Below are positions 5,303-62,533 of a stretch of DNA of 64,000 nt, piece after piece. Origin of the DNA: Escherichia phage ECD7. The stretch lies in sequence record NC_041936.1. One strand, written 5' to 3'. Each line of letters begins with the position of its first letter. Position 1 is the stretch's first letter. The notes under the pieces are model-generated. The model saw only the letters and a list, made by a program, of their open reading frames with translations, did not search any database and was not told the DNA's origin. Both the position numbers and the translations under genes were made by a program.

Positions 5303-5971
5303 TTATCCCCTTTGTTTCTTAACTGAATTTGGATCTGGATTTTCTGGCAAGTCTTCCAGACCCATAGCATAACGTTGTGCATAGATTAGCATAAGAATAT
5401 CGCGAGCGCAATCATGAATTGCATCATGCGCGATAAATCCGTCTAGCGTACCCATTGGTAACGGGCATTCACACATACCACGATGCATCAATGTACGCTC
5501 AATGGCGGTGCGAACGTCTCGGATGTTCCAGAATCGCACAGGTTCAAGATTGAACGTCTCTCGTGTATTGTATGCACGGCGGATCATATCAACTAGTAAC
5601 GGAATATCAAACGCATTACCGCGTGACCACATTACGGATTTAACCGGATCTACCCCTACGGATTCACAGAATGCGTTAAAACGCGCTAAACCTTCTTTAG
5701 TTGATACTTCCGTACCATTTGTGATTAATTGCTTTCTCATGCCTTCTGAGGCGGTATTCTTCCACCATTCAACCACACCATGATCAAACACCCTTACACC
5801 TTTCTGGGAAGGAATATCAAATTTTACCAGAAAGGAATTGTCAACCAGTTCTTTAAATGTAGGTGGGTTGTGCGGATCTTCTTTAAATCCGATTGCCGCC
5901 ATATTGATCACCGCCCCATCAGGCGGATAACCTAAACTTTCAAAGTCAATCATTAAATCCACTGGAAGCAT
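5303..5971 (-). CDS. dexA: exonuclease A (DEDDh 3'-5' exonuclease)
   Basis: Start ATG 5969-5971 preceded by GGAGG; MLPVDLMIDFESLG... resembles T4 DexA; synteny. Confidence 0.85.
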   Translation of the reverse strand: MLPVDLMIDFESLGYPPDGAVINMAAIGFKEDPHNPPTFKELVDNSFLVKFDIPSQKGVRVFDHGVVEWWKNTASEGMRKQLITNGTEVSTKEGLARFNAFCESVGVDPVKSVMWSRGNAFDIPLLVDMIRRAYNTRETFNLEPVRFWNIRDVRTAIERTLMHRGMCECPLPMGTLDGFIAHDAIHDCARDILMLIYAQRYAMGLEDLPENPDPNSVKKQRG

Positions 5972-11816: not shown

Positions 11817-12020
11817 TTATAGCTCAAATTTCATGAAAGTTCCTACACTTTCATTTTCATTCTCTCCGTTCTCATCTAAGCCAAATTTGTAGACACTACC
11901 ATCTGGCGATGTGTAAGAGAATACACGAAAACGGCCTACCGGGTCAAGTTCTGTAAATTCATATTCTTTTCCGGCTTCAAAAAGTGCATATGTGCTTTTA
12001 AGACATTTCATCGTAATCAT
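11817..12020 (-). CDS. hypothetical protein
   Basis: 67-aa ORF, ATG at 12018-12020. Confidence 0.4.
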   Translation of the reverse strand: MITMKCLKSTYALFEAGKEYEFTELDPVGRFRVFSYTSPDGSVYKFGLDENGENENESVGTFMKFEL

Positions 12021-12340
12021 TTAAGCGCCACCGATAACAGAATGAGAACTACACCAACATACATTGTGATCTCGGATAACTTTTCTGTTTTTGTTTTGTG
12101 TCCAGATAATCCGAAAACAACAACACCGATAATAGCGGACAGCAAGCCAACGATAAACATGATGATACTAAGCACCGTCTTTCTCCTTTTTGCGTTTTTC
12201 TTTACCCGCTACACTAGGTCCACGATTGGTAATAGATCCGCTCGTTTCACCTGCTGCAATCTTCTCAGGATTGCCGCCAGCATCGCCAGCGGTCATATCT
12301 TCTTTGAGTTTATTTTCTTCAACAAACTGTTTAAAGCCAA

Positions 12341-16548: not shown

Positions 16549-18025
16549 TTAAATGTCAAACAGGTCCGTAAGCGATGCCACCTTTTCATATTGCAGCTTT
16601 GCAGCCGTGGTAATGTTCTCCAGTGGTTTGACGAAAGTCTTATTAAACAACAAAGGCCAGTCTAACCACTTCAACACTTCTGATTCAATTTCTGGCGGAA
16701 TACGAGTACCAGACAACCAACCAAAACAGATTTCTCCAAACGGATTTCGATCTTTAAGCGGTACAATCATAACCTTCTCGCCTTCACGAATCGGATCTAG
16801 TCCGAATTTTCGAGCATTACGATTATAACACAATACACTCTTAACCGCATACGGACAACCCTTAATCGGATACCCGTTTGAATCGCTGTATTTCTGTAGG
16901 TTGTTTGCAGATGATACCGCAGCAACCTCAAGATAATCAAGTTTTCTAAACTCTTGCTCAAAAATACCGTAGTATTCCTGTAGCGATTCTTCCCCTTCCT
17001 GCAACATACGGCGAATACATTCTTTCAGTGATTTCTGACATGCTTTAGGGGTGGAGCTACGTTGCGTTTCCAAGCCCATGATTTTTAGCTTAGGTTCAGC
17101 AAAGCGCGTTCCTTCCATATCCCAAACATTAAGAGCATAACGCTTTTTACCAGTCCAGAATCCACCGATACCCGCAGATTTCAACGGAGGACCAGCAATT
17201 GCCTCACGGTCCATAAACATCAAGTGCTCATAGTTATTCATGTACTCGCATAACTCGCGATATCCCTTGTCGATAATAGGTTCCATTCGATGTTTACCGA
17301 AATTATCAAGGAAGTCAACAAGTTTTTCGGTATCGTCGAAACGGTCTTCCCCGCCAACCTTATCAACAACATTGTTAACCAGCACATAAACGGAGTCAGT
17401 ATCACAATAACGAACATATGCAAAATCAGTTGTTCCGCAAAGCTCGTTTAAGTATTCGTTAATCTTACGCTCAATCCACTGAATTGCAAGCTGACCAAAC
17501 AGTGTGATCGCACTAGCGTTACGGAGATCATAAAAACGGAATTTAGGATTCCCCAACGCACCATAAAGGGAGTTGATCAAAACTTTACGAGAAAGCTGGT
17601 TTGTATTGCACAAGATCGACTCGTCTTTACATTCTTCCAGCAATTTCTCTAAGGCATCTTTACTTAATTCAGAAAGCATCGATTTAAACGCTTCGTCAAA
17701 GTCGTGACGCACTTCAACGCTATAGCTAATGGTTCCCCCATAAACATGATTTTCATCGTGTAGAATCGCTTTACATAGTTCAGCATTGCGATCACATGCC
17801 AGCATCATATTTTTGTACTGCTTACGCTGATCAAATACCTTTTTAATCTCAATAGGTACGATACCATGAATATCTTTTCGATACATCCACCCGTTAGGCG
17901 AGCAAGAATACTCATCACTCGGACGTGGTGCAGTTTTATTGATATATTCGTGCATCGGTGCAGCATCAAAAGATCCAGCGATTGTTTCAGGCGAAATATT
18001 AACCTGACGGATGATTGATGGATAC
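16549..18025 (-). CDS. 43: DNA polymerase gp43, exon 2 (motif A YPS onward; palm/thumb)
   Basis: Frame open from 18025 (YPSIIRQVNISPET...); LINSLYGALGN, YCDTDS, KKRY motifs; stop at 16549-16551. Confidence 0.9.
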
Positions 18026-18165
18026 CATTATGTTCAGCGCGGTTCGCTACTCCCGCGCCCGTTCTCTTGCGAACTGCTACATGTCACCATGTAGATCAGA
18101 CTATATCACATTCTCATAGAGAATCCTGCCATTTCGAATCGCTTGATTCTACTCTACTCGGTTCG

Positions 18166-18990
18166 TTACCCTTTCGATAGTCGTTGAACAACTGCATCTT
18201 TAAGCTCATTTTGATCAAACGGTGTTCTCTTACAGTACCCGCTATAATTCTTGGCAAAAGGTTTCTTCTTACCAAAGATCTCTTTTCCTGAATTATGTGC
18301 TTCAACAAGAAAATTCACCATTTCATCAAATGTGAAACTTGTAAATTTAGCATAAGTTTCATTACGTTTTGACATTATTTTACTCATAACTTCCGGTCGT
18401 TTAGACGCTGAATTTTCGCGCTTCTCGCCAGCATTAAATGATACTAACTCACCGGAAACATATCTAGGATCATCACAACTAACTCTAAACCGATTTCCTT
18501 CCTTATCCTTAACGATAACAGTATTCTTTAGCTTTTCTGCCATAGAATCAAGACCTTTTCGTATAGTGTCCTCATCAGCCCCGAAATATTTCTTTCCGCT
18601 CATATCGGTTCTGGCTTTTCCGGTCTTGTTTTCGGATATTTTCAGTCTAACTTCCTCTCGCTTGGCTGGGTTATTGTCTCCAGCGAATGCATCTTTGGTT
18701 AACGCCTTCACTTTATCGTCATAAGATCCTCTAGAGATGAAAGCATATGCTCTCTTGCATTCACCGTTATTGAATATTAAGCACAATAACCGATGCGCCT
18801 CGACGTGGTCTTCAAACTTAAGCCTAACAAGATTCCATTTATCTAACCGATATTCAGGGAACATTGACTTCGGGCATATATGATGCACCTCGGAATATTC
18901 TTCACCCTGATACGGATTAGACACCAGTTTAATGTAGTCGTTTAATGCTTCCTCGTTATGTATTTCGTACTTTCTTAAAATGTCTTTCAT
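18166..18990 (-). CDS. intron-encoded HNH homing endonuclease
   Basis: HNH motif EVHHICPKSMFPEYRLDKWNLVRL...HVEAH; ATG at 18988-18990 preceded by GGAGG. Confidence 0.8.
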   Translation of the reverse strand: MKDILRKYEIHNEEALNDYIKLVSNPYQGEEYSEVHHICPKSMFPEYRLDKWNLVRLKFEDHVEAHRLLCLIFNNGECKRAYAFISRGSYDDKVKALTKDAFAGDNNPAKREEVRLKISENKTGKARTDMSGKKYFGADEDTIRKGLDSMAEKLKNTVIVKDKEGNRFRVSCDDPRYVSGELVSFNAGEKRENSASKRPEVMSKIMSKRNETYAKFTSFTFDEMVNFLVEAHNSGKEIFGKKKPFAKNYSGYCKRTPFDQNELKDAVVQRLSKG

Positions 18991-19035
18991 CTCGCGCCTC
19001 CAATGTATATCAATATTTATATACATTATAAGACA
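18991..19035 (-). promoter_or_regulatory. T4-type late promoter (TATAAATA) and RBS for the intron endonuclease
   Basis: Minus strand TATAAATA (plus 19024-19031) about 33 nt upstream of the HEG ATG. Confidence 0.5.
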
Positions 19036-19139
19036 CGTTAGCTCAAAATGCAACTGCTGCTGATTGTCTCCTTAGAGATTTCCCAGCAATTAAGCAGGTT
19101 ATTCGATCACTGTCACCAGTGAAAGCCCCATATCAGTTT

Positions 19140-20341
19140 AGGGAAGTAAGGTCAAAGCTCATCATCCAACGATAAGCATTAGGTACTGGCTCTTTTACGA
19201 ATGCGCCAGGATAAGTCTGCTTAGGCTGTATCTTGTTCTCTGGTACTACTTTACCCTCAGCTTTCAGAGATCCGAAGATAATAGCATCCCATACTTTCAT
19301 CGGGTTATAAACATGGTTAAATTTAATCTTTGCATAGAAACATAGACTATACACCAGATCGATAAATCCACGCTTTTTATCAATCGCCAGCACACGATCA
19401 ACGTCGCCGATGTTATAATCGATGTAAAGTTGATGATTGTCATCACGCAATTTCTTTAACGGACCATCATAATCAACCTTACCGATTCCTGTCTCATATT
19501 CAGCAACATAATCTAACGCATATGTTGGTTGAGTCGTAAAGCTAAATTTCTTGTACAGGTCAATATAATCAAGGCTTTCGATCCCCATGATCGTAAATGC
19601 TTCACGCTCGTTGCCAAAATCATCCTGTGAGATTCTGGATTTAATCTTACCGCACGGGCTTAGACGGTTAGCGGTTCTACTTCCGAACTTATTACTGATA
19701 CGTTTAATGATATATGGAATATCGAATGTTTCTGTGTTCCAGCCAGTGAAACCAACGGGTCGGTTTTCCTCAAAGAATCGGATGTATTCTAACAGCAATT
19801 CATCTTCTGTGTCATAGACGTTATAAACAACGCGCTCTACAATATCAGGTCGAAGAATAGACTTGCTTGCTTCCCAGATTTCACCGTTTTTTCCTTTCAA
19901 ATCAAATACAAAGAAACGATCATGTACGGAATCATAATGCGTAATTGCATCTATAGGATATTTCGCTTCTTCTGGTTTAGGAAATTCTGGGGCAGTGACC
20001 TCAATATCAACCCATGCTACACGGATTTTATTTCGGTCATATCGAATCTCTCCTTTATACGTATCGGACAGATAGGAGATGATAAAATCATCCATCCCTA
20101 GTGCCTCTTGCCCCATCTCCCCCATCTTTTTACGCCATTTGTTGGCCTCGTTCATAGATGGGAATTTTTTAGCAATGCAAGGCTTGCCGTAGATATCTTT
20201 ATAATTCGTAACCATACCAGGCGCGGCATGATGAAATAAAGTTGGCGTATATTCAACGTAACGCTCTTGTTCTTGTCCAGCATCATCAATATAACGCTCG
20301 TAGATCTTATCACCCACTCGCTCACATGACAGAAAATACAT
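19140..20341 (-). CDS. 43: DNA polymerase gp43, exon 1 (N-terminal and 3'-5' exonuclease domains to motif A)
   Basis: ATG 20339-20341 with AAGGAG SD; ERYIDDAGQ, FDIPYI, ends FDLTSL at splice site. Confidence 0.9.
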
Positions 20342-20364
20342 AATATAAACTCCTTCACTTACGA

Positions 20365-20405
20365 AAGACACTCATTATAGGGGAATCGACTTAGTTTGTC
20401 AATAC
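20365..20405 (-). promoter_or_regulatory. sigma70-type early promoter upstream of gene 43
   Basis: Minus: TTGACA-17nt-TATAAT, with GGGG/CCCC inverted repeat flanking the -35. Confidence 0.5.
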
Positions 20406-31193: not shown

Positions 31194-31200
31194 GAATTAC

Positions 31201-31359
31201 TTAATGATACTTACTTTACCAGATCCATGACAATGAGCGCAACACCCATCACCACGCAATCCTGTTCCGTTACAGTGTTTACACTTCTTCAACGGTAAAG
31301 CCATTATAGCAAATAAAGCAATAATGAACACCGAAACTAAATTCTCAATAATCATAAAT
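31201..31359 (-). CDS. small membrane-anchored Cys-rich peptide (52 aa)
   Basis: MIIENLVSVFIIALF...CKHCNGTG...CCAHCHGSG; below the ORF-track length cutoff, hand-translated. Confidence 0.3.
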
Positions 31360-49359: not shown

Positions 49360-49758
49360 TTAAGCCAATCGAGTGAGTTTATAAATTGTTTTAAAGCATA
49401 GAGCTTTGATATCGTCTAAAACGCTCTGTAACGAGCTATCAACATCATTATAAATCTCACTAGCCATTTGCGTTAACTCTTGCAAATAGGCAATTTCGCT
49501 CATCTCCTTGCGGACGACCAACGTTGGCTGATAACGACCAGTGATCCCAATATTGGTTTCAGTGAAATCATCAACCAATTCTTGCATTTCAAGATAGAAC
49601 TCTTCTAGAGCCTTATGTTTTGCATAAGATCCAGGACCAGTTACCCCAAAATGCGCAGAATGCATATAAGTAACACTCATCAGACATTCACCGATAAAGC
49701 GGTCAACTTTATTAGCTTTCCCCTCTTCGGACGTCTTTCGAAAATCACTGAATTTCAT
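49360..49758 (-). CDS. hypothetical protein
   Basis: Internal ATG 49756-49758 (MKFSDFRK...) with GGAGAA SD. Confidence 0.45.
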   Translation of the reverse strand: MKFSDFRKTSEEGKANKVDRFIGECLMSVTYMHSAHFGVTGPGSYAKHKALEEFYLEMQELVDDFTETNIGITGRYQPTLVVRKEMSEIAYLQELTQMASEIYNDVDSSLQSVLDDIKALCFKTIYKLTRLA

Positions 49759-50047
49759 GTTCTCGATTCTCCATATTATGCAACATAACAAACTGTTGTG
49801 CGGCATATTCCCCCATAATAAAACACTGCTTAGAATCCATACATTTACTACGAGCATACATCTTCATAATATGGGCATGAAATTTCTGGCTGGTTTCAAT
49901 GGAAGGAGATATTTTGTTTACATATACTATCATTGCACCGTCGAAATAATCAGTAAAGTCACCAGTTGGATCATATTGATCAGCACTGACACTTCCGACC
50001 GCAGTCAAGCATATTGCCGCTGTTAGAGTTTTACGAATAAATGACAT
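49745..50047 (-). CDS. secreted protein with N-terminal signal peptide
   Basis: MSFIRKTLTAAICLTAVGSVSA signal-like N-terminus; late promoter and SD-sequestering hairpin upstream. Confidence 0.5.
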   Translation of the reverse strand: MSFIRKTLTAAICLTAVGSVSADQYDPTGDFTDYFDGAMIVYVNKISPSIETSQKFHAHIMKMYARSKCMDSKQCFIMGEYAAQQFVMLHNMENREHEIQ

Positions 50048-50115: not shown

Positions 50116-50712
50116 TTATTTGGTAGTACCGTCAATAAAATGTTTACGGCACACAGAGACATATTTATCCTCTGCACCAACTTCTATTTGAGCACCATCG
50201 CGAATAACATTACCCTCTTTATCTACACGAAGGACCATTGTTGCTTTCTTGCCACAATGACAAATACCCTTCATTTCGACCAGTTTATCAGCAAATGCCA
50301 TTAATGCCGCAGATCCTTCAAATAGATTGCCCTGAAAGTCGGTGCGAAGGCCATAGCACAGTACAGGGATATTTGCATCATCGACAAGCGCACACAAGCC
50401 TAAAACATGCTCTTTAGTCATAAATTGGGCTTCATCTACAAATACAGCATCAGGACGCCATCGATCCGGTCTACGCTTACCTAACGATTCACGATAAACC
50501 AAATCGAAAAGATCATCCGATTTAGTGAAGGTGATCGCTGGAGCACTTAGACCAATTCGGGAAACAACTTCACTTTCTGAATCTCGATTATCAATCGCTG
50601 GCTTAAGAATTAATACTCGCATATCACGTTCGGTATAGTTATAAGCACTTTGTAACAGAGAAGTTGATTTGCCAGCGTTCATAGATGCATAGTAGAAATA
50701 TAGTTGCGCCAT
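50116..50712 (-). CDS. tk: thymidine kinase
   Basis: YFYYASMNAGKST Walker A, Zn-ribbon CxxC...CxxH at C-terminus; 198 aa. Confidence 0.9.
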   Translation of the reverse strand: MAQLYFYYASMNAGKSTSLLQSAYNYTERDMRVLILKPAIDNRDSESEVVSRIGLSAPAITFTKSDDLFDLVYRESLGKRRPDRWRPDAVFVDEAQFMTKEHVLGLCALVDDANIPVLCYGLRTDFQGNLFEGSAALMAFADKLVEMKGICHCGKKATMVLRVDKEGNVIRDGAQIEVGAEDKYVSVCRKHFIDGTTK

Positions 50713-51005
50713 TAATTAATCTCCAAAAATCCAGCAAGACCTAAACCGATATAAGTCCAGATACAAAGGAAAAAGAAGCAAACACCCATAGCAAAGATAA
50801 ATCCGCGTAGTGTCTTTGGATAACCTACCCAATATTCCCGACCATCTTCTAACCGGATCAACTTATTGCCTTGCGAGTCCATATCAACTACAACATGTTT
50901 ATTTCGAGATTGCAATAGATATTGTTTTACAATCTCTACACCCGCCATAATAACAATAACGAAAATAAAAGTCCACACAACAAGATTAATGATAGTCTCA
51001 AGCAT
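50712..51005 (-). CDS. hypothetical membrane protein (two predicted TM helices)
   Basis: 97 aa, hydrophobic N- and C-terminal segments. Confidence 0.45.
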   Translation of the reverse strand: MLETIINLVVWTFIFVIVIMAGVEIVKQYLLQSRNKHVVVDMDSQGNKLIRLEDGREYWVGYPKTLRGFIFAMGVCFFFLCIWTYIGLGLAGFLEIN

Positions 51006-55526: not shown

Positions 55527-56012
55527 TTAGTTGATACCTAAGCCAATGAAAATAGGTTGGTCTTCTACACTACCCCTTCCAACACTAAATCGATTTACTT
55601 CTAAAAACTGCAATACGCTGTCAGTAAATCCGCGCATGGTAGTATCTAGGATAAAAATTGTTTTGTCAAGACTACGACCTCGCCAAGTGATCGGATTCAG
55701 GAAAGTTCGGATAGACGTACAATCTACATTTGAAATATTTACATTTTCACCGCGACCGCGATCTCGGATCGTTTTGGCATGTTCCCGCGTCGTTGAAACG
55801 ATAAAGACACTATAGCCTTTTCTAGTATAATGGTCATATAACTTGATTGTAGCGTCTGTATGCCCTGTCTGACGTCCTAAATTGATTGAGACGATGGAAT
55901 CTAGGTCATCAGCAAAATTGCGTCGCTTACGGCGTTCTATGATGCCATTTACGGCAGAAATACACGCAGCATAAATCAAATCTTTACTTTCTAATTTTAC
56001 ATCAATATTCAT
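55527..56012 (-). CDS. hypothetical protein
   Basis: 161-aa ORF preceded by a 9-bp stem 5'UTR hairpin (56030-56060). Confidence 0.45.
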   Translation of the reverse strand: MNIDVKLESKDLIYAACISAVNGIIERRKRRNFADDLDSIVSINLGRQTGHTDATIKLYDHYTRKGYSVFIVSTTREHAKTIRDRGRGENVNISNVDCTSIRTFLNPITWRGRSLDKTIFILDTTMRGFTDSVLQFLEVNRFSVGRGSVEDQPIFIGLGIN

Positions 56013-56074
56013 GGTAAAGTCTCCAGTGAACGGGGAGAGATCCTTAGATTGTCTCCCCGTTGATGGTTAATATT

Positions 56075-56464
56075 TTATTTTGGATCTGGGTATTTGCTGT
56101 GTGGTAGCTGAAAATGAACACCGTCTTTAAACGATACCCAATCCCCACCCCATTCAACAGAAACACCCAATTCTCGACCAGCTTGTTTAAATGCATCCGC
56201 GATCATGCGGTAGTATTTCATGTTCCATGTATCCTTATCTTTCGGATACGCTACAACGTCAACCGCTAAACCGTGAAGATGACGAGATTTCATAGTCTTA
56301 GATTTACCTTCCGCAACATATTTCTTTTGCGTTTCTAGACTACGTACACCTTCCGTAATACCAAAATCGACCGGAGTCAGTTCTAATGCACGATGAACGA
56401 CTTTTACCAGATCAGGATGCACACCAACAAGCCGATCTTTGCTTCTTTGAGATAATTTAAACAT
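56075..56464 (-). CDS. endolysin, L-alanyl-D-glutamate peptidase (peptidase M15-like)
   Basis: SRHLHGLAVDV and DGVHFQL zinc-ligand motifs; 129 aa; occupies the T4 e (lysozyme) neighbourhood. Confidence 0.8.
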   Translation of the reverse strand: MFKLSQRSKDRLVGVHPDLVKVVHRALELTPVDFGITEGVRSLETQKKYVAEGKSKTMKSRHLHGLAVDVVAYPKDKDTWNMKYYRMIADAFKQAGRELGVSVEWGGDWVSFKDGVHFQLPHSKYPDPK

Positions 56465-56493
56465 TATTCACCCCCCTTTGTGAGTGATAATAT

Positions 56494-56685
56494 TTAGATT
56501 CCGGCGATCCTGCATATAGTTCTTGTATTAGCACCAATCAGGATCGCATTAACGACAACCATTCCCCAATCAACCCACTGATTATTATAAATGCTAAACC
56601 CGTTTGCAAGACCAAATACAAGCATTCCGGTACACATACTCAGAGCAATAATCAACATCACGGTAAAACCAAATGCAAATCTCAT
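56494..56685 (-). CDS. small hydrophobic membrane protein
   Basis: 63 aa, mostly hydrophobic. Confidence 0.4.
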   Translation of the reverse strand: MRFAFGFTVMLIIALSMCTGMLVFGLANGFSIYNNQWVDWGMVVVNAILIGANTRTICRIAGI

Positions 56686-56686
56686 A

Positions 56687-56953
56687 TTATTTTCCTTTTC
56701 TCTGTTTACGTTTATAAAAGTAATACATTACCTCATCGCGTCCGGTGATCCAACATGCTAGGGCGGTAAACAGGTTTACAATTCCCAACACACCTACGGA
56801 TGCGGCGCTGTCAACAGACATAGGAACAGTAAAGGCCATAGCTAACATAGCAACGCCACAAATGACATTAAGCACCATTATAATAAGACCGAAGAAAACC
56901 ATTGTCAATCCTCCCAAATAAGAAAACCAACAATCACGCCAGTGATAAGACAT
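56687..56953 (-). CDS. small hydrophobic membrane protein
   Basis: 88 aa, two hydrophobic helices. Confidence 0.4.
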   Translation of the reverse strand: MSYHWRDCWFSYLGGLTMVFFGLIIMVLNVICGVAMLAMAFTVPMSVDSAASVGVLGIVNLFTALACWITGRDEVMYYFYKRKQRKGK

Positions 56954-57096
56954 GATGCGCCGCTAATAAGACAACCCGCGCCAAGTGATTCCCACCAGAT
57001 CAGAGAAGCGACAATAACACAGAATCCCCATACTACCGCAATCACAACATAGGCAAGGGTCGCCCAAAACATATATTTGTTCATAATAAATCCCAT
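56905..57096 (-). CDS. small hydrophobic membrane protein
   Basis: 63 aa. Confidence 0.35.
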   Translation of the reverse strand: MGFIMNKYMFWATLAYVVIAVVWGFCVIVASLIWWESLGAGCLISGASCLITGVIVGFLIWED

Positions 57097-57476
57097 TCAC
57101 CAAACAAATAAGAAAAAAGCCATATCAACAGAAACGAGGCAATTGATCCGGCAAGCAAAATGATATTAGAGAATCCGCCGTCTATCCAGCGACAAAACAG
57201 AATACGCCAGTATAGAAGCATAAACCCAGTACAAAGCATACTATAAGCAACCATAGAAAGCCCTCCAGTGAGCTAATTTAGTGCGGGTAGTACATTACCC
57301 TACCCGTATTGTTAATCATCGCAGAGCTTCTTCTAGCGCGATCCCAAACCATCCACAAACAACGCCCATACAGACAGCTACAAGAAGATTCATTCTCTCT
57401 TTAGGAATCATTGCAATCATAACAACAACCATACAGAAAGCCATTACCATTGAAGTTAACATTTGTTCAACCATTA

Positions 57477-57815
57477 TCACACCTTTAAAGTCATAGACGC
57501 ATAAACATTAATGCCAGTCCAGTTAGGATCGCAATTATACTCAACATCCCACAAATAAAGCGGTTTAGATGTATCAGCCAAGTTTTTAAAATCTTCTACC
57601 CACATTTCAAGGCTATATGATGGATAAACTAGGCTATCATATCCGCCGTAACGTTGGCCTACTGGTCGGTCAGTAAAAACTACCTCAAGATCCGGTAATT
57701 CTTTTTCAAGGATAACCGCCAGCGCATAAATCAGACGGTCTTCCTTGTTACGCTGCCGAAGGACCGTTGTCAGTTGGGTTTTCTGGTTCACTAGCAAGCA
57801 CCTCCACATTTTCAC
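57477..57815 (-). CDS. hypothetical protein
   Basis: 112-aa ORF. Confidence 0.4.
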   Translation of the reverse strand: MKMWRCLLVNQKTQLTTVLRQRNKEDRLIYALAVILEKELPDLEVVFTDRPVGQRYGGYDSLVYPSYSLEMWVEDFKNLADTSKPLYLWDVEYNCDPNWTGINVYASMTLKV

Positions 57816-58068
57816 AGAATGAAATTTTCACAGACACAATTTTACCATAAGTGAAGAATGAATATACATTATCGAGATATTCAACGTCACCTACAATCAC
57901 ATCAAACTGCGGATCAGCAACTGCCGCAACATATTCTACCAGTTCATCAAGAGAATGCAACTTAATTTCATCAATTCGGCTGTATTTGGTTGCATCTTTA
58001 ATTTTAAAACCACGTTCTTTCAGCTTGTCAATCAGAATTTCACGCGGAGTTTCAAACAGTTTGCTCAT
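57748..58068 (-). CDS. hypothetical protein
   Basis: 106-aa ORF. Confidence 0.4.
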   Translation of the reverse strand: MSKLFETPREILIDKLKERGFKIKDATKYSRIDEIKLHSLDELVEYVAAVADPQFDVIVGDVEYLDNVYSFFTYGKIVSVKISFCENVEVLASEPENPTDNGPSAA

Positions 58069-58089
58069 AATATAATCCTCACATTAAAT

Positions 58090-58290
58090 CTAAAATTTGT
58101 TAACGACGAATTGCATAATTAGACTAATCACAAACATTGCAAACCAAGTATAAATGCAACAGATAAAAGCTACATACAATTCAATCTGGTCAGAGAATAC
58201 ACCGGGTAAAAGCATTAGCAAAATAACAACAGTAAAGACGCTAGCGATACCCGCAACAAAACCAATATCATTTTTACTAATCGTCATCAA
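58090..58290 (-). CDS. small hydrophobic membrane protein
   Basis: 66 aa. Confidence 0.4.
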   Translation of the reverse strand: MMTISKNDIGFVAGIASVFTVVILLMLLPGVFSDQIELYVAFICCIYTWFAMFVISLIMQFVVNKF

Positions 58291-58496
58291 GTCACCGTTT
58301 TGTAAAGAAACACAATAAAATCCAAGACAAGAAAGACAGTGTAAATGATCATCGTCAAGACAGTAAACACTGTCAAATTTTCATCGTTAGTTAATTCATA
58401 GTCGCCCATCCATACAATAACAAGATATAGCATTGAAAGAATGGAAGCACCTACGAAGTTAAAAAACATATTCTTGAGCGTCATATTAACAACCAT
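58287..58496 (-). CDS. small hydrophobic membrane protein
   Basis: 69 aa. Confidence 0.4.
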   Translation of the reverse strand: MVVNMTLKNMFFNFVGASILSMLYLVIVWMGDYELTNDENLTVFTVLTMIIYTVFLVLDFIVFLYKTVT

Positions 58497-58668
58497 CGCG
58501 GCTTAAGTCAACAACAATTGCATACAGCATAATGAATATGCTAGCAGATCCGAGAATCAATGCACCCTCACATTTTGAAACTCGCTCATCAAAATGTAAC
58601 ATTATCCATCCGAGGATGTTAAAGGCGCAGACCGCGCCTATGTTCGCTAACCAATTAATCTTTTTCAT
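58486..58668 (-). CDS. small hydrophobic membrane protein
   Basis: 60 aa. Confidence 0.35.
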   Translation of the reverse strand: MKKINWLANIGAVCAFNILGWIMLHFDERVSKCEGALILGSASIFIMLYAIVVDLSRDGC

Positions 58669-58676
58669 AATATACC

Positions 58677-59003
58677 TTAGAAAGAAACAGTTTTCAAGAA
58701 ATCCAGATTTTTAGTACCGAAAACAGAAAAGTAGTGTTTTCCTTTTTCGGTTTTAGAGAAAGCGATTGTCTTCTCTACATGGTGACGGAAGCCAGACAGA
58801 CGATCACCCAGGTCAAGGCGGCAAGCGTAAGTAGTGCCGTTTTCGAAAGTAACCTCGATTTGAGTTTTGTCATATTCGCTTTCATAGGCTTTTGCTGCCG
58901 CGTCCTGTGCTTTACGCTCGAAGTCTTCGAAGTGGAATACTTCGTTTGCGTTAGCGAATACAGAAGATTCAGAGAAGATAACTTTAACAGATACTGGTTT
59001 CAT
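58677..59003 (-). CDS. hypothetical protein
   Basis: 108-aa ORF after AAGGAG. Confidence 0.45.
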   Translation of the reverse strand: MKPVSVKVIFSESSVFANANEVFHFEDFERKAQDAAAKAYESEYDKTQIEVTFENGTTYACRLDLGDRLSGFRHHVEKTIAFSKTEKGKHYFSVFGTKNLDFLKTVSF

Positions 59004-59044
59004 TTTGATACTCCTTAGTAGTTCGTGTTTCGTTTCGATGGGTG

Positions 59045-59076
59045 TATTATGCTATACACCCTCTCTCGTGTCAACA
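59045..59076 (-). promoter_or_regulatory. sigma70-type early promoter (PeSL-like)
   Basis: Minus: TTGACA-17nt-CATAAT then conserved CATCGAAACGAAACAC UTR. Confidence 0.55.
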
Positions 59077-59083
59077 ACTTTTT

Positions 59084-59272
59084 TTAGTCTTTTTTCAAAA
59101 TTTTTAAGGCAGTTTCTACAGCACCTTTCCAACCCTCCCACATAATGGACATAGTAATGAAGTTAAAGCACCCGCAGGAATCAACCTTTTTAGAGATAAA
59201 CCATTCAACAAATCCTTCGCTCATACCATGCTCTTTAGCGGATTCGCGTAATTGTTCAATTTGGTCTTCCAT
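59084..59272 (-). CDS. hypothetical protein
   Basis: 62-aa ORF. Confidence 0.35.
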   Translation of the reverse strand: MEDQIEQLRESAKEHGMSEGFVEWFISKKVDSCGCFNFITMSIMWEGWKGAVETALKILKKD

Positions 59273-59281
59273 AGTATCACC

Positions 59282-59482
59282 TCAACACTTAACGTTATTC
59301 AAACGATTTTGAAAGTACATATAGCAAGCATAATTTTGCTTTGGTTGTACCGTATCAGATAGACACGCTTTTGCAGCCTCGCGGTCCGATGGATCTACAC
59401 CCTCAGCTTTAAGTAATGCTAAAATCTGGTTATAGCGTACTCTTAGCTGTACTAATGGTTTCTCTCCCACAAAACCCTCCAA
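59282..59482 (-). CDS. hypothetical protein
   Basis: 66-aa ORF. Confidence 0.35.
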   Translation of the reverse strand: MEGFVGEKPLVQLRVRYNQILALLKAEGVDPSDREAAKACLSDTVQPKQNYACYMYFQNRLNNVKC

Positions 59483-59710
59483 TTAAAGTTGTTCTGCAAT
59501 GTATGCGGTGCATTTGCGGAGTTTAGCCATAGCACCACCTTTCATGTCGCTTGCGCCTACAATGTTCATGATCTCTAAGCGATCAGCCGGATTCAGTCTA
59601 GTAGCCCAGATCTGGTTAGCCAGTTCCATTTTACCCATCTGCGGTTCCATCTCAAACATTTCACGCTCAAAGTCGATAATTTCTTTTGCTGCGTCTTTAA
59701 AGTTAATCAT
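59483..59710 (-). CDS. hypothetical protein
   Basis: 75-aa ORF. Confidence 0.4.
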   Translation of the reverse strand: MINFKDAAKEIIDFEREMFEMEPQMGKMELANQIWATRLNPADRLEIMNIVGASDMKGGAMAKLRKCTAYIAEQL

Positions 59711-59737
59711 TTTGGTCCTCCCGTTTCGTTGATGGTT

Positions 59738-59769
59738 GTATTGTAGGGGAGTTATCCTCCCCTGTCAAC
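59738..59769 (-). promoter_or_regulatory. sigma70-type early promoter (PeSL-like)
   Basis: Minus: TTGACA-GGGGAGGATAACTCCCC-TACAAT. Confidence 0.5.
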
Positions 59770-59776
59770 ACTTTTA

Positions 59777-59962
59777 TCAGAAATATGCAATATAGTTTGC
59801 CAGTCCTACAGAGTCATCATTCGGCATTGCTTTTACCGCCAGTTCAAACCCTGCTTCAACTTTCTGTTTAGCGGATTCTTCGTTATAACCCCAGATGACC
59901 AGAATAGCTACTACGTTTTCTTTGCTTACTGCTTTCAGTGCTTTAGTGATGCGACGTGCCAT
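59777..59962 (-). CDS. hypothetical protein
   Basis: 61-aa ORF. Confidence 0.35.
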   Translation of the reverse strand: MARRITKALKAVSKENVVAILVIWGYNEESAKQKVEAGFELAVKAMPNDDSVGLANYIAYF

Positions 59963-60006
59963 AATTTGATTCTCCGTTTAAGAAAGTGTGTTTCGTTTCG
60001 ATGGGT

Positions 60007-60038
60007 GTATTATGCTATAGGCGTGATCTGGTGTCAAC
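60007..60038 (-). promoter_or_regulatory. sigma70-type early promoter (PeSL-like)
   Basis: Minus: TTGACA-17nt-CATAAT. Confidence 0.55.
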
Positions 60039-60060
60039 AACTTTTTTAAAAATTTTAGGC

Positions 60061-60087
60061 AATAAAAAAGCCACTCCGAAGAGTGGC
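60061..60087 (-). terminator. intrinsic terminator
   Basis: Minus: GCCACUC-uucg-GAGUGGC then UUUUUUAUU. Confidence 0.7.
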
Positions 60088-60237
60088 TTATAGGGAAGGT
60101 AGCGAATCTTCCTTGTCTCCAACCTGCTAGCGGCCTAGCAAGTGAATGCTTTAGCGTACCGGATCACCCCATACGCTGTAATAAATGCGGCTAGGTGACG
60201 TCCAAATCATTCTAACCGCGCTGTCTTTAGTTCACTA
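60088..60237 (-). ncRNA. candidate small structured RNA (late promoter to terminator, no ORF)
   Basis: TATAAATA at plus 60239-60246 (minus strand), about 150 nt with several 6-bp hairpins, longest ORF 14 codons, ends at terminator 60061-60087. Confidence 0.4.
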
Positions 60238-60456
60238 TTATTTATATCGCTTTCTCTCGCGACGTTTTTGATCTTCTTCCTTGATAGAGTTAAACGCATC
60301 AAAAAGACACATGACACTGATAATGAACATAACCGTATTTTCTACGATATCCCACGGCTTCGCATCAGTACAGATCCCCCAAACGGTAAGAAATGCAAAT
60401 AGTGCAGAAGAGATCACAAGCATGATACTTGCTAAGATATAAAAAGTCATTTTCAT
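60238..60456 (-). CDS. small hydrophobic membrane protein
   Basis: 72 aa. Confidence 0.4.
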   Translation of the reverse strand: MKMTFYILASIMLVISSALFAFLTVWGICTDAKPWDIVENTVMFIISVMCLFDAFNSIKEEDQKRRERKRYK

Positions 60457-60647
60457 GGTTTTACCTCAATTCTTCGATATTCATCACACATCCACGCAGT
60501 AAGCAAGAATCCCAGCACATAAGCAACAAAATACGTTAATGCTTCTTCTGGTTTCGTGCTATGTATCATCAGTAAACCAGCGAGAACGGTCTTAACAATT
60601 ACATTTAAAATAATTAGCCACGCAAATAATTTCATCGTTTGCCCCAT
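60453..60647 (-). CDS. small hydrophobic membrane protein
   Basis: 64 aa. Confidence 0.4.
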   Translation of the reverse strand: MGQTMKLFAWLIILNVIVKTVLAGLLMIHSTKPEEALTYFVAYVLGFLLTAWMCDEYRRIEVKP

Positions 60648-60871
60648 TTCGGTCGAGTCTTTTCAAACTTATACATTACGTAACAATCTCGAATCATCCA
60701 CGTAACAAGAGCACCAGTCAACACAGACAACACACAGAAGAAGTAAAACGGTCCGGTTGCATTATCAACATGAGCAAGCCATGTAAAGAAAACACATGCT
60801 AAGAATGTAAAGAACATCATAAAACACAAGAAAGCAAAATATTTTATGCTACTCATAGCGCCACCATACAA
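60632..60871 (-). CDS. small hydrophobic membrane protein
   Basis: 79 aa. Confidence 0.4.
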   Translation of the reverse strand: MYGGAMSSIKYFAFLCFMMFFTFLACVFFTWLAHVDNATGPFYFFCVLSVLTGALVTWMIRDCYVMYKFEKTRPKWGKR

Positions 60872-60959
60872 CAGATCATAAGAAAACCCAACGCAATAAG
60901 AATTGCATCAAATTTAGTGAACTCCGGTCCACCTATCAACATCATTCGTTCCTGTTCAT

Positions 60960-61202
60960 TCATAGATCACAGAGCCATCTGAAAGCACCACATAAAGCGA
61001 GCAGAATACTAGGTATAAACGAGACTAAAACAAGTTGGCAAAAATCATCTAAGGTAACACCGGAATAGCTACCTACTGTAACAACACCGATCATCAGACA
61101 CAGAAAGAAAACAAATGCAATCAGAAACAAAGTATTGCTAAACAGTTTAGTGATCATTAGACACCCCACGACGATCAATTTCAAAAACTTTTTTATCATC
61201 AA
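60960..61202 (-). CDS. small hydrophobic membrane protein
   Basis: 80 aa. Confidence 0.4.
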   Translation of the reverse strand: MMIKKFLKLIVVGCLMITKLFSNTLFLIAFVFFLCLMIGVVTVGSYSGVTLDDFCQLVLVSFIPSILLALCGAFRWLCDL

Positions 61203-61350
61203 CGAAGCATGTCACAACTGCCTCGTTGACTTCCGCAAATTGTTGTGTTACCCACTTAAGGTCAGAGCGAAACAATGTTCTATTAATAACAAATGTTTTA
61301 CCGCTCTTATCCTTACCCATAAATTTTGCTTTAACCATATCCAATTCCAT
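61147..61350 (-). CDS. hypothetical protein
   Basis: 67-aa ORF. Confidence 0.35.
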   Translation of the reverse strand: MELDMVKAKFMGKDKSGKTFVINRTLFRSDLKWVTQQFAEVNEAVVTCFVDDKKVFEIDRRGVSNDH

Positions 61351-61368
61351 ATTATCACCTTATTTGCT

Positions 61369-61527
61369 AATCGCTAAACCCAATCCGAAGAGAGCACCCG
61401 ATGCTACAGTATACACGAAAGTTTCAAAGGCAGTAAAGATATCTAAGCCACCAGCTAACAGAGTTGCAGTAAACAGAGTACCAGCTACGAACATAAAAGT
61501 TTTACCGATAAATTTCATCTTGATTCT
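61369..61527 (-). CDS. small hydrophobic membrane protein (52 aa)
   Basis: Hand-translated MKFIGKTFMFVAGTLFTATLLAGGLDIF...; below track cutoff. Confidence 0.3.
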
Positions 61528-61543
61528 CCTTTCGTTTGTTTGT

Positions 61544-61579
61544 GGGGGTATCTTACTACCCCCGTTTCATGTTGTCAAC
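61544..61579 (-). promoter_or_regulatory. sigma70-type early promoter (PeSL-like, GGGGGTA stem-loop)
   Basis: Minus: TTGACA-17nt-TAAGAT. Confidence 0.55.
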
Positions 61580-61584
61580 TGTTT

Positions 61585-62028
61585 TTAAGAAAATTTTACT
61601 TCGTCTACAATGTCTTTCATGACATTGATTTCCATTCCGGTCAGAACACGTTGGAACATGTGCTGAACATACGCTTTCAGGTATTCATTTGACGGCTTGC
61701 TATCAAAAGTCTTTTTAGTGTAGTAGTCATCACCGAAAGCTACTGTAATTACATTTTCGTCGTCATTCCAAGCGATATAAGCAAATTTGCCGTTATCCCA
61801 GAAGCGAGCACTAATTGCTACTTTTGTTGAATCGAATCCTAATTCGCTGTGAGATTCAAGAACTACTTGCGTGCCAGTTTCTTTATGAATGTAGTAGCGG
61901 GATACTAAGTCAAAGTTACGGGTGTAGTGACATTCGAATTTATCTTTAAACATCATCATTTTGATTCTCCTAAGTGTGTTTCGTTTCGATATGTGTATTA
62001 TTCTATAGTCGTTTATGGTTGTCAACAC
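61585..62028 (-). CDS. hypothetical protein
   Basis: 147-aa ORF upstream of the Acb1-like gene. Confidence 0.45.
   Translation of the reverse strand: MLTTINDYRIIHISKRNTLRRIKMMMFKDKFECHYTRNFDLVSRYYIHKETGTQVVLESHSELGFDSTKVAISARFWDNGKFAYIAWNDDENVITVAFGDDYYTKKTFDSKPSNEYLKAYVQHMFQRVLTGMEINVMKDIVDEVKFS
61995..62026 (-). promoter_or_regulatory. sigma70-type early promoter (PeSL-like)
   Basis: Minus: TTGACA-17nt-AATAAT. Confidence 0.5.
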
Positions 62029-62029
62029 C

Positions 62030-62061
62030 TAAAAACAAAAAACCCCGAAAAATTTTCGGGG
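62030..62061 (-). terminator. intrinsic terminator
   Basis: Minus: CCCCGAAAA-u-UUUUCGGGG then UUUUUUGUUUUU. Confidence 0.7.
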
Positions 62062-62068
62062 TATAAAA

Positions 62069-62533
62069 TTACAGTTTGGTCGTCCACTCCAGGTCTAGAT
62101 CTTCGACATACTCATGAGATCGGACAATCTCTAAATCGAACTCTAGGTCAGTGCCAAATTTACGCGCACCAACATCATAAGAAAGCGTGATATGCGGTAC
62201 ATATTCAGGATAATCCCACGTCGCACCTAAAGCAGTGCCGATATCGTGTCTGAATTGCATGTAGTCGCTTTCAAATGCCAACACAAGCGCATTAGTACCG
62301 GATTGAGTTTCAAACACTTTCAGATGACACAGAGAGCCTAAAAACTTTTCACCCTCTTCCGGGATAAACGGAACATAGACACGAGAATATAAGATAGTGC
62401 TATGCAGTTTATCACGAGGAACAGCATTAGGCAGATCGTAGAACTCCTGCAATTTTTCAATGCGGTCTAGTGTATCCTCAGTGAATTTAACCGCAGCATA
62501 TGTACCTTTAACGGATTCTCGAAACGGGGTCAT
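62069..62533 (-). CDS. 2H phosphoesterase-family protein, Acb1 (gene 57B)-like candidate
   Basis: Two H-x-T-x motifs (KLHSTILY, VPHITLSY); sits next to 57A and gene 1 as T4 57B does; ATG 62531-62533. Confidence 0.55.
   Translation of the reverse strand: MTPFRESVKGTYAAVKFTEDTLDRIEKLQEFYDLPNAVPRDKLHSTILYSRVYVPFIPEEGEKFLGSLCHLKVFETQSGTNALVLAFESDYMQFRHDIGTALGATWDYPEYVPHITLSYDVGARKFGTDLEFDLEIVRSHEYVEDLDLEWTTKL

Follow-up and report, generated by a model that had tools for sequence, protein, structure and literature searches.

The 64,000-nt window analysed here comes from a Krischvirus, an RB49/Phi1-like T4-type coliphage. On its minus strand, within ~5 kb (56494-61518), lie 14 ORFs of 36-74 aa in three runs of five, three and six genes, here called C1a-C1e, C2a-C2c and C3a-C3f. 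The initial annotation had described three clusters of small hydrophobic products of 50-90 aa, the last reaching 61527. The three runs are indeed present, all on the minus strand, and the products are small; their sizes from annotated starts are nevertheless 36-74 aa, the last gene ends at 61518, and the third run is not unbroken, as it contains dmd, which encodes a soluble antitoxin (61147..61350, minus strand; Pfam PF17587, E=7.6e-16).

The first run (ORF numbers are those of the Phi1 orthologues) consists of C1a (56494..56685; 63 aa; ORF103; phrog_15016; dN/dS 0.25-0.28), C1b (56687..56902; ORF104; dN/dS 0.12), a 71-aa two-TM hairpin whose C-terminal tail is basic, C1c (56905..57084; ORF105), a tight two-TM hairpin of 59 aa, C1d (57081..57254; 57 aa; ORF106) and C1e (57316..57474; ORF107), a Met-rich two-TM protein of 52 aa with a basic loop. 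The second comprises three two-TM proteins, C2a (58090..58287; 65 aa; ORF110), C2b (58287..58496; 69 aa, with an acidic loop; ORF111) and C2c (58486..58668; 60 aa; ORF112). In the third are C3a (60238..60456; ORF118; dN/dS 0.10), a 72-aa two-TM hairpin whose C-terminal helix is highly charged, C3b (60453..60635; 60 aa, two-TM; ORF119), C3c (60632..60856; 74 aa, with two TM segments and a basic tail; ORF120; dN/dS 0.11), C3d (60853..60963; ORF121), C3e (60960..61157; 65 aa, two-TM; ORF122) and the Gly-rich two-TM protein C3f (61360..61518; 52 aa; ORF124; pN/pS 0.11). C3d is 36 aa with a single C-terminal TM segment, or 29 aa with an alternative start at 60942; phrog_15282 spans residues 1-36. 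Neighbouring genes overlap by 1-11 nt (11 nt for C3e and the dmd stop) or lie 1-2 nt apart, in line with the overlapping stops and starts described earlier. Public records already carry these genes as hypothetical proteins, and their novelty is only modest: all 14 are annotated in Phi1, GEC-3S and UPWr_E1, 11/14 in W115, 11/14 in MIZ2 and only 7/14 in JK32, which bears out the suspicion that some fall below gene-calling thresholds.

Two minus-strand transcription units are predicted. The first starts at a PeSL-type sigma70 early promoter (61550..61578; TTGACA-17-TAAGAT with a GGGGG/CCCCC stem-loop, annotated in GEC-3S), continues from C3f, the first gene after the promoter, directly into dmd and then through C3e, C3d, C3c, C3b and C3a, and ends at an intrinsic terminator (60068..60089). 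A highly conserved candidate structured RNA was also noted at 60062-60240, and gene 43 likely carries a group I intron. The second unit is headed by another PeSL early promoter (59046..59074; TTGACA-17-CATAAT), and would include ORF113, an LPD25-domain protein (58677..59003; Pfam PF18840, E=3.3e-14), C2c, C2b, C2a, ORF109, ORF108, C1e through C1a and, 29 nt downstream of C1a, an M15 peptidase endolysin (56075..56464; Pfam PF13539, E=2.8e-12). PeSL repeats, promoters and terminators at the run boundaries are annotated in GEC-3S as well, and in RB49/Phi1 PeSLs were shown to have promoter and terminator activity (PMC2839356). RB49 has no motA and no middle promoters, and its novel ORFs are associated with early promoters (PMC1524935). 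Upstream of the runs the late motif WATAAATA is absent and only sigma70-type early promoters are found, a promoter type that suggests early expression of all three; our literature search yielded neither a transcriptome nor a proteome for Krischvirus. The anti-CBASS nuclease Acb1 is encoded by 57B (62069..62533, minus strand; Pfam PF23474, E=1.5e-51; PMC9117128), which lies upstream of run 3 at a distance of two genes. All three runs sit in a hyperplastic stretch of the early region that is bounded by PeSLs.

Whether such ORFs are genes cannot be judged from hydrophobicity, because their +1 frame is nearly as hydrophobic as the annotated one (mean GRAVY 0.94 vs 1.10); the argument for coding is therefore built on conservation, dN/dS and frames free of stops. 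The annotated frames contain no stop codon, as against 81 in the +1 frame and 21-82 across all other frames. Across Krischvirus genomes, variation in the 14 genes is mostly third-position, with a pooled pN/pS of 0.24 in frame, whereas the two shifted frames give 0.99 and 1.78. In the divergent metagenomic relative L011 (dS ~0.47), 14/14 are found intact and in synteny; their aa identity is 67-96% and the in-frame dN/dS 0.28. For most of the genes dN/dS is 0.1-0.3. Known variants excepted, the ORFs are intact and in the same order in eight Krischvirus genomes. The T excess peaks at codon position 2 (0.475 vs 0.30 in soluble neighbours), and nearly all 14 genes have a Shine-Dalgarno motif or ATGA start/stop coupling. 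In the window allele of C1d, compensating 14-nt and 1-nt deletions preserve the reading frame. Non-coding ORFs that owe their hydrophobicity to strand composition would account for the T-rich coding strand, the one alternative frame about as hydrophobic and the gaps in some records' annotation; this explanation is already contradicted by the conservation data, and we consider it extremely improbable. The random-frame control proposed in the initial annotation thus went against the ORFs for one frame and was overridden by the independent evidence from dN/dS, T at position 2 and intactness. In-frame ratios of 0.24-0.28, when shifted frames give 1-1.8, show sustained purifying selection, and the 14 ORFs are real genes for predicted inner-membrane mini-proteins restricted to Krischvirus.

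At least one TM window (19 residues, Kyte-Doolittle score >=1.64) was found in 13/14 proteins and two in 11-12/14. Hydropathy, charge distribution and AF2 models concur on the topology, predicting for most of the proteins a two-helix hairpin with both ends cytoplasmic and a short acidic periplasmic loop; the C1b model has two helices, and that of C3a has helices at 2-29 and 34-71 (pLDDT 80.6). The clustering of such ORFs exceeds chance: among tiled minus-strand ORFs of up to 100 aa in the 64-kb window, a strong TM segment occurs in 15/54, of which 12 lie in 56.4-61.6 kb (Fisher p=1.6e-5). In another ORFan-rich 50 kb of Phi1, a strong TM segment was seen in 1/40 small ORFs.

Each mini-protein is an orphan confined to Krischvirus-like phages. 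None of the 14 has a Pfam or NCBIfam family, each falls in a separate small PHROG, and no robust paralogy was detected among them. With tblastn against 50,697 phage records, matches were obtained solely in 57 Krischvirus records, and four large protein-database searches (1.84e9-5.8e9 proteins) returned, apart from the two C1b matches described next, only close Krischvirus-like relatives at >=74% identity. An exhaustive C1b search of 1.84e9 representatives added only two weak, probably spurious matches to the Krischvirus-like ones, and a C3c search among 5.8e9 proteins found solely relatives >=97% identical. At least 12 of the 14 genes are conserved genus-wide. Makalu002-type phages carry, in place of C2a, an allele 32% identical to it and lack C2b, which is truncated in W115 and JK32. 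An extra C1d paralogue was also recorded. The dN of the mini-protein genes is twice that of their soluble neighbours. Tails and loops are invariant in the proteins examined (C1b and C3a), and residues 40-71 of C1b, covering TM2 and the tail, are invariant even at 80% overall identity.

Orphan status, mutual unrelatedness and elevated dN would also be expected of proto-genes, recent de novo or fast-evolving ORFs arising from T-rich hyperplastic DNA and having little specific function. The hydrophobic +1 frame points the same way, as does the N-terminus of C1d, still hydrophobic though frame-shifted, and a precedent exists in the TM-first model of Vakirlis et al. (2020, PMC7005711), in which genes are born de novo out of thymine-rich DNA. 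Our genes resemble that case in their T-rich coding strand, in being orphans, in encoding small products dominated by TM segments and in having TM-prone alternative frames. That model, however, concerns yeast intergenic DNA, and the purifying selection here marks established genes, for which a de novo origin is hypothetical. Low dN/dS with 14/14 intact across the distance to L011, the T peak at codon position 2, the invariant tails and loops, and the Shine-Dalgarno sites and translational coupling all argue against proto-genes, which we regard as unlikely.

The initial annotation had proposed holin or antiholin roles. Since runs 1 and 2 are predicted to be co-transcribed with the endolysin, a lysis-related role for run 1 is possible: C1a-C1e, perhaps with other mini-proteins, would serve as holin, pinholin, antiholin or lysis-timing proteins for the M15 enzyme directly downstream. 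C1b, C3a and C3c resemble class II holins in having two TM segments, both ends cytoplasmic and a strongly charged C-terminal tail, and C1b especially recalls pinholins such as phage 21 S68 (~70 aa, endolysin downstream). Very weak Pfam matches to Phage_holin_3_5 (E=0.032) and Phage_holin_3_6 (E=0.1-0.4) were also obtained, but these score 11-15 bits against cut-offs of 27-28 bits and look compositional. Class II holins are moreover expressed late, whereas the runs have sigma70 early promoters, from which holin synthesis would kill the cell prematurely, and a pinholin would call for a signal or SAR sequence that the endolysin lacks. Krischvirus also has a full T4-type set elsewhere (t holin, rI, rI.-1 and pseT.2/pseT.3): in the reference genome Phi1, t and the T4 spanin gene orthologues pseT.2/pseT.3 map outside the runs, and rI lies in the window at 49745-50047. 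Because t, rI and pseT.2/pseT.3 map elsewhere, a holin role is unlikely and the 14 genes appear distinct from the phage's own lysis genes; we consider a lysis module here very unlikely.

We favour, with a probability of about 0.5, the reading that the three runs are 14 unrelated Krischvirus accessory genes for early membrane proteins acting in exclusion or counter-defence. Host sigma70 RNA polymerase would transcribe the two units right after infection, neighbouring genes would be tightly coupled in translation, and the mini-proteins would insert in the inner membrane, where their helices and short tails would bind partners that are themselves embedded in the membrane. Such partners might belong to the apparatus by which superinfecting phages enter, or be effectors of membrane-based defence and abortive infection encoded by the host or a prophage; by binding these, we propose, each mini-protein would act on its own target as an exclusion or counter-defence factor. 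The exchange of C2a for another allele, a C2b that is lost or truncated, the extra C1d paralogue and the doubled dN match the turnover of arms-race genes. Superinfection immunity, raised in the initial annotation, is a plausible candidate role; nothing favours the membrane remodelling also suggested there. Association with dmd and acb1 is a weak argument because T4-type early regions mix many functions, and 14 separate exclusion or counter-defence proteins are many for one phage. None of the 14 resembles a characterised exclusion or anti-defence protein in sequence or fold.

Genus-wide conservation of most of the genes suits core infection physiology equally. E. coli itself has small membrane proteins, AcrZ, MgtS and MgrB, that bind and tune host inner-membrane machines, and the mini-proteins might likewise tune transporters, respiratory complexes, proteases or division proteins, optimising the infected cell. 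The evidence from structure and timing fits this reading just as it does exclusion or counter-defence, conservation of at least 12/14 genes suits housekeeping roles in infection, and the invariant TM2 and tail of C1b suggest a single fixed, conserved partner. Against host modulation, the mini-proteins are homologous to no regulator of this kind, their neighbours are counter-defence rather than metabolic genes, and they evolve faster than soluble neighbours and undergo allele replacement. We consider it rather unlikely.

The mini-proteins can also be compared with known systems. Inner-membrane proteins of <100 aa with one or two TM segments that serve in exclusion or regulation, such as HK97 gp15, AcrZ, MgtS and MgrB, act by binding larger membrane proteins, a likeness by analogy alone, with no homology. 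In T4 the syntenic interval, vs.8/endolysin to 57B, holds the uncharacterised TM ORFs e.3 and e.4 (120-130 aa) and trna.4 (61 aa), also predicted two-TM proteins, but these are three genes rather than 14 and share no sequence similarity with ours. Arbiol et al. (2010, PMC2839356) described ORFan cassettes flanked by PeSLs in hyperplastic regions of RB49/Phi1. These come from the same genus and share with our runs the promoter-stem-loop elements at the boundaries, the ORFan content and a polymorphism in which close relatives differ by insertions, deletions and replacements; here, however, most genes are genus-conserved, and a PeSL delimits a whole operon, not every single gene. That paper describes the shuffling mechanism and leaves membrane proteins unmentioned ('transmembrane' and 'hydrophobic' have 0 occurrences). 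T4 Imm (Pfam PF14373) differs in genomic position and in sequence (no Pfam match at E<=1; no tblastn match of Imm to the window or Phi1 loci), and no Imm or Sp homologue was detected in the ~3/4 of the genome examined. Like the mini-proteins as predicted here, however, this superinfection immunity protein is small (83 aa), has two TM segments and resides in the inner membrane; its gene, too, is an early one within a dispensable part of a T4-type genome. Work by Lu and Henning reportedly showed that Imm alters the membrane and thereby blocks uptake of DNA from incoming phages. The role proposed for the mini-proteins would match that of Imm and fits the neighbouring Dmd and Acb1.

Fourteen small hydrophobic ORFs, with starts as in the curated records, were found on the minus strand in the three runs proposed by the initial annotation. 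C1a-C1e make up run 1 (56494-57474), C2a-C2c run 2 (58090-58668) and C3a-C3e run 3 (60238-61157), to which C3f (61360-61518) also belongs; the antitoxin gene dmd (61147-61350, PF17587), which encodes a soluble protein, lies within run 3. The products are 36-74 aa long, and adjacent genes either share 1-11 nt or are separated by 1-2 nt. Shine-Dalgarno-like motifs are present at -9 to -13 for 11-12 of the 14, with ATGA start/stop overlaps at the remaining genes. All genes of the window are on the minus strand and the GC content is ~40%. The 56000-62000 interval is 97-98% identical to Krischvirus LF73P4, kaaroe, W115, Phi1, GEC-3S and RB49, and every one of the 57 phage records matching it is a Krischvirus. 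The Phi1 annotation of the interval reads vs.8, ORF102 (endolysin), ORF103-113, 55.3, ORF115-122, dmd, ORF124-125, 57B, 57A and gene 1. This gene order and the Krischvirus identity place the 14-gene locus of this RB49-like T4-type coliphage in an early region already known as "hyperplastic", small ORFan-rich hyperplastic regions being a known feature of T4-type phages.

The 14 genes take up 52% of the 5-kb interval. Among the strongly transmembrane (TM)-positive small ORFs of the 64-kb window, 12 of 15 lie inside 56.4-61.6 kb (Fisher p=1.6e-5), and in Phi1 114-164 kb, the other ORFan-rich early region examined, one of 40 small ORFs is TM-positive; the concentration is therefore non-random. We found no earlier mention that the small TM genes of the early region lie almost entirely in one 5-kb island, or that small TM genes are co-transcribed with dmd. 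Three further small TM ORFs lie outside the island, at 12017-12175 (-; 52 aa, adjoining the 61.1 orthologue), 31197-31355 and 50712-51005 (-; 97 aa, the orthologue of Phi1 ORF088 beside tk); the first and third have no Pfam family.

A concern raised at the outset was that AT-rich codon bias alone might explain the hydrophobicity. The +1 frame is indeed nearly as hydrophobic as the annotated frame (mean GRAVY 0.94 vs 1.10), and hydrophobicity is thus not usable as coding evidence. The genes themselves are not refuted by this control, however, since the +1 frame contains 81 stops compared with none in the annotated frame, and both the substitution pattern and the intactness of the ORFs in a divergent relative support them. 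In the window and eight Krischvirus genomes, variable sites fall mostly at codon position 3, and pooled pN/pS is 0.24 in frame vs 0.99 and 1.78 in the shifted frames (0.13 for soluble neighbours). The relative, a 170-kb metagenomic contig retrieved via C3a (ENA k141_165622), retains an unbroken copy of each of the 14 ORFs in unchanged order, with 67-96% amino acid identity; dN/dS is 0.28 vs 0.20 in the neighbours, and dN is about twice that of the neighbours. The 14 are real protein-coding genes that are under purifying selection and evolve faster than their soluble neighbours. Enrichment for T is greatest at codon position 2 (0.475 vs 0.30) and mild at position 3; the excess at position 2 is expected from selection for hydrophobic residues. 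In the C1d allele of the window (57081-57320, -), the usual start codon is lost through a 14-nt deletion, and a further deletion of 1 nt lies ~60 nt downstream; jointly, the two restore the frame. The first 19 residues of this allele are read in a different frame from that in Phi1, W115, Makalu002 and JK32, yet are still largely hydrophobic.

Within the genus, 11 of the genes are conserved throughout. Makalu002 lacks C2b and has, in place of C2a, an allele of 32% identity (5435-5635), a state to which the 72%-coverage pattern also points for JSE-type phages; C2b is truncated in W115 and JK32. JK32 additionally has, at 1971-2135, a 54-aa TM ORF that is a paralogue of C1d (47% identity over 30 aa), inserted at the stem-loop between C1e and C1d. 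All 14 genes are annotated in Phi1, GEC-3S and UPWr_E1, 11 in W115 and MIZ2, and seven in JK32. The suspicion that gene callers miss such ORFs was thus borne out, with three of seven annotated relatives examined leaving out 3-7 of the 14. GenBank has listed the ORFs ever since the genomes of RB49 and Phi1, some as "putative membrane protein", and TM predictions for the RB49 ORFs were tabulated in a 2006 supplement (PMC1524935). No data on their function, nor any transcriptome or proteome data for them, emerged from our literature search.

In 11-12 of the 14 proteins we detected two hydrophobic segments linked by an acidic or neutral loop, with K/R at each terminus. From this charge distribution, hairpins whose N and C termini both face the cytoplasm are predicted; C3d, with a single C-terminal TM segment, and C1e, with a basic loop, are exceptions. 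In AF2 models of C3a (pLDDT 80.6) and C1b (pLDDT 70.8), a turn of 4-6 residues connects two long helices, and a Foldseek search of the hairpin models against viral models returned nothing below E=0.9. The share of variable positions is the same in TM (28.5%) and non-TM (28.3%) segments, so this comparison gives no clue to an interaction surface.

All 14 proteins are orphans. Each matches solely its own small unknown-function family in PHROGs, and Pfam and NCBIfam gave nothing above threshold for any of them, the sub-threshold matches being to scattered TM families. In a tblastn search of 50,697 phage records, matches to the 14 were confined to the 57 Krischvirus records. Word-indexed searches with C3c, C3a and C2a against 5.8e9 proteins recovered only relatives of at least 74% identity, and when 1.84e9 representatives were scanned exhaustively with C1b by HMMER, the outcome was a single real cluster, 80% identical, and two further weak matches that are probably spurious or truncated. 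A scan of IMG/VR with the LPD25-domain protein ORF113 gave no match. Paralogy among the 14 was considered but lacks robust support: for C1b-C3c, the best pair, the shuffle p is 0.0026 uncorrected for 91 pairs and the hhalign probability is 20% (score 21.5 vs 17.2 for the best reversed control). In contrast to the orphan 14, ORF115-117 (59312-59975), small genes for soluble proteins located between runs 2 and 3, share 72-78% DNA identity with T1-like siphophages such as tonijn, damhaus and BECP10, indicating exchange across phage families; ORF117 corresponds to Pfam DUF7421.

With DNA that is hydrophobic in two of three sense frames, the island could serve as a nursery in which T-rich sequence yields new two-helix proteins by de novo birth, tandem duplication and frame-shifting, these then being recruited as a diversified arsenal against membrane-based exclusion and defence systems. 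This idea is compatible with 14 orphan, mutually unrelated genes, with their clustering at this site and near absence from the second ORFan-rich region that we examined, as well as with the hydrophobic frame-shifted N-terminus of C1d, the 32%-identity allele of C2a and the fresh paralogue in JK32, but we put it forward only tentatively and consider it unlikely. Rather improbable, too, is that the 14 are simply TM proteins to which T-rich DNA gave rise (PMC7005711), either young and of de novo origin or evolving fast; even so, the sustained purifying selection means that they are now functional genes.

The PeSL, a promoter and stem-loop repeat element, was described in RB49 and Phi1 and shown to be active as promoters and terminators (Arbiol et al. 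2010, PMC2839356). Copies belonging to families D1-D6 are located at 59015-59093, 59729-59775, 59978-60056, 61543-61597 and 61979-62045, and comprise a sigma70-consensus promoter (TTGACA-17-TATAAT-like), an upstream A/T tract and a G/C stem-loop. Intrinsic terminators are predicted on the minus strand at 62062-62042 and 60089-60068. The genes are organized in two minus-strand operons as delimited by promoter and terminator predictions. The first extends from the PeSL early promoter P(61578) through C3f-dmd-C3e-C3d-C3c-C3b-C3a to a terminator. The second extends from P(59074) through ORF113 (58677-59003), C2c-C2b-C2a, ORF109, ORF108 and C1e-C1d-C1c-C1b-C1a to the endolysin gene, with no convincing terminator between ORF113 and the endolysin. 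The locus thus has the flanking PeSLs, and the ORFan content with presence/absence or replacement polymorphism, of a PeSL-flanked ORFan cassette; unlike the cassettes of Arbiol et al., however, the PeSLs here bound operons and not single genes.

RB49 has neither motA nor middle promoters, and the novel ORFs it carries are tied to early promoters (PMC1524935); in agreement, we detected no MotA box or MotA-type middle promoter in the window. The late motif WATAAATA is depleted, with four occurrences in 64 kb vs 13.4 expected, none of which precedes a run. Given the sigma70 promoters of the PeSLs and the lack of MotA boxes and late motifs, early expression of the 14 would be expected from the sequence.

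One of the four late-promoter motifs (TATAAATA, 60239-60246) sits at the 5´ edge of a 179-nt segment between C3a and the next PeSL (60062-60240, -). Across all 57 Krischvirus records this segment shows 97-100% identity, and its conservation is just as high in the divergent metagenomic relative, where the flanking genes show dS of 0.3-0.9. Four hairpins, together with the terminator at 60089-60068, are predicted for the folded segment (MFE -63.6 kcal/mol, z=-3.75), and the few substitutions in it are GC-to-GU or in loops. No Rfam family, tRNA, or T4 rnaC or rnaD was matched, and a spurious ORF is annotated here in some records. We consider the segment a candidate for a late-transcribed sRNA of ~165 nt. 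A late promoter TATAAATA (19014-19021) also precedes a 295-aa ORF without a Pfam match (18166-19053) in gene 43, the DNA polymerase gene (16549-20371, -). There, two exon ORFs, one carrying DNA_pol_B and the other DNA_pol_B_exo1, are separated by an insertion of ~1.1 kb (~17956-19132). At 18077-18337 this insertion matches an Rfam group I intron with a sub-threshold score (32.8 bits, E=3.8e-6; gathering score 50). It is found in ~10 of the 57 Krischvirus records (including Cognac and kvi) and is absent from Phi1, GEC-3S and W115.

The initial annotation had suggested holin- or antiholin-like functions for these clusters. Such a role is unlikely because a full set of lysis genes exists at other sites in the genome, the promoters are of early type and no holin family was matched. 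The best holin-family scores were PF16085 (E=0.032, 14.8 bits, cut-off 27) and PF07332 (E=0.1-0.4), and none of the 14 falls in a PHROG lysis category. A holin-type shape of TM helices followed by a charged C-terminal tail is limited to C1b, C3a and C3c, which have two TM helices and 7-8 K/R in a tail that the other 11 are without. Phi1 has the T4-type lysis genes t (holin, 154.9 kb), rI, rI.-1 and pseT.2/pseT.3; rI and rI.-1 are in the window, rI (49745-50047) behind a late promoter. With t present as a holin, hole formation by the phage would not depend on the 14. Late expression as lysis genes is likewise not indicated by the sequence, as the promoters predicted upstream of the runs are solely PeSLs of the sigma70 type. 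The gene after run 1 (56075-56464, -) encodes an M15 peptidase endolysin without a signal sequence, and its predicted co-transcription with run 1 might indicate that this run in particular serves lysis, which, set against the same lysis genes and promoters, we regard as very unlikely. The endolysin Shine-Dalgarno sequence (GGGGGGTGA, 56468-56487, -) lies within the 3´ arm of a weak 6-bp hairpin, with no late promoter nearby. Early T4 e transcripts are subject to translational masking, which this hairpin recalls.

We favor the interpretation that the 14 are early accessory inner-membrane hairpin proteins, each of which would act on a membrane-embedded partner, and assign this reading a probability of about 0.5. 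Most plausibly, they would serve to exclude superinfecting phages or to counteract membrane-based defenses of the host or of prophages. It seems doubtful that the 14 would instead modulate host membrane physiology. Anti-defense genes are co-located with the runs: dmd is inside run 3, and 57B, two genes upstream of run 3, is Acb1 (PF23474, E=1.5e-51), an anti-CBASS nuclease (PMC9117128). The other operon is headed by ORF113, with its LPD25 domain. Current views of T4-type genome organization are not overturned by these results, and the genes are already in public annotations. Small membrane proteins are nevertheless the least understood phage "dark matter" and are often missed by gene callers, and the locus offers a compact test bed for the origin and upkeep of orphan TM proteins. 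If the 14 are exclusion or counter-defense factors, Krischvirus would hold a sizeable untapped set of membrane-acting inhibitors, which would matter given that these phages have repeatedly been isolated for E. coli and Shigella therapy and biocontrol.

The syntenic vs.8-57B interval of T4 contains e, ip genes, tRNAs, rnaC/rnaD and the uncharacterized TM ORFs e.3, e.4 and trna.4, which share no similarity with the 14. We also compared the 14 with two T4 exclusion proteins, Imm, which keeps the DNA of superinfecting phage out of the cell, and Spackle (Sp); for neither were homologues detected in the window or in the approximately three quarters of Phi1 examined. For Imm, there was no Pfam match of the 14 to PF14373 at E<=1 and no tblastn match at E<=1 in the window, Phi1 0-50, 52.8-61.9 and 114-164 kb, or the metagenomic relative. 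For Sp, tblastn gave only a chance-level match (E=0.056) inside gene 41. Sp combines a cleavable signal peptide with a soluble periplasmic domain that inhibits the gp5 lysozyme, whereas none of the 14 has a soluble domain. From hydropathy, charge distribution, AF2 hairpins and promoter type, the 14 are predicted to share with Imm a small size, two TM segments, early expression and an inner-membrane location.
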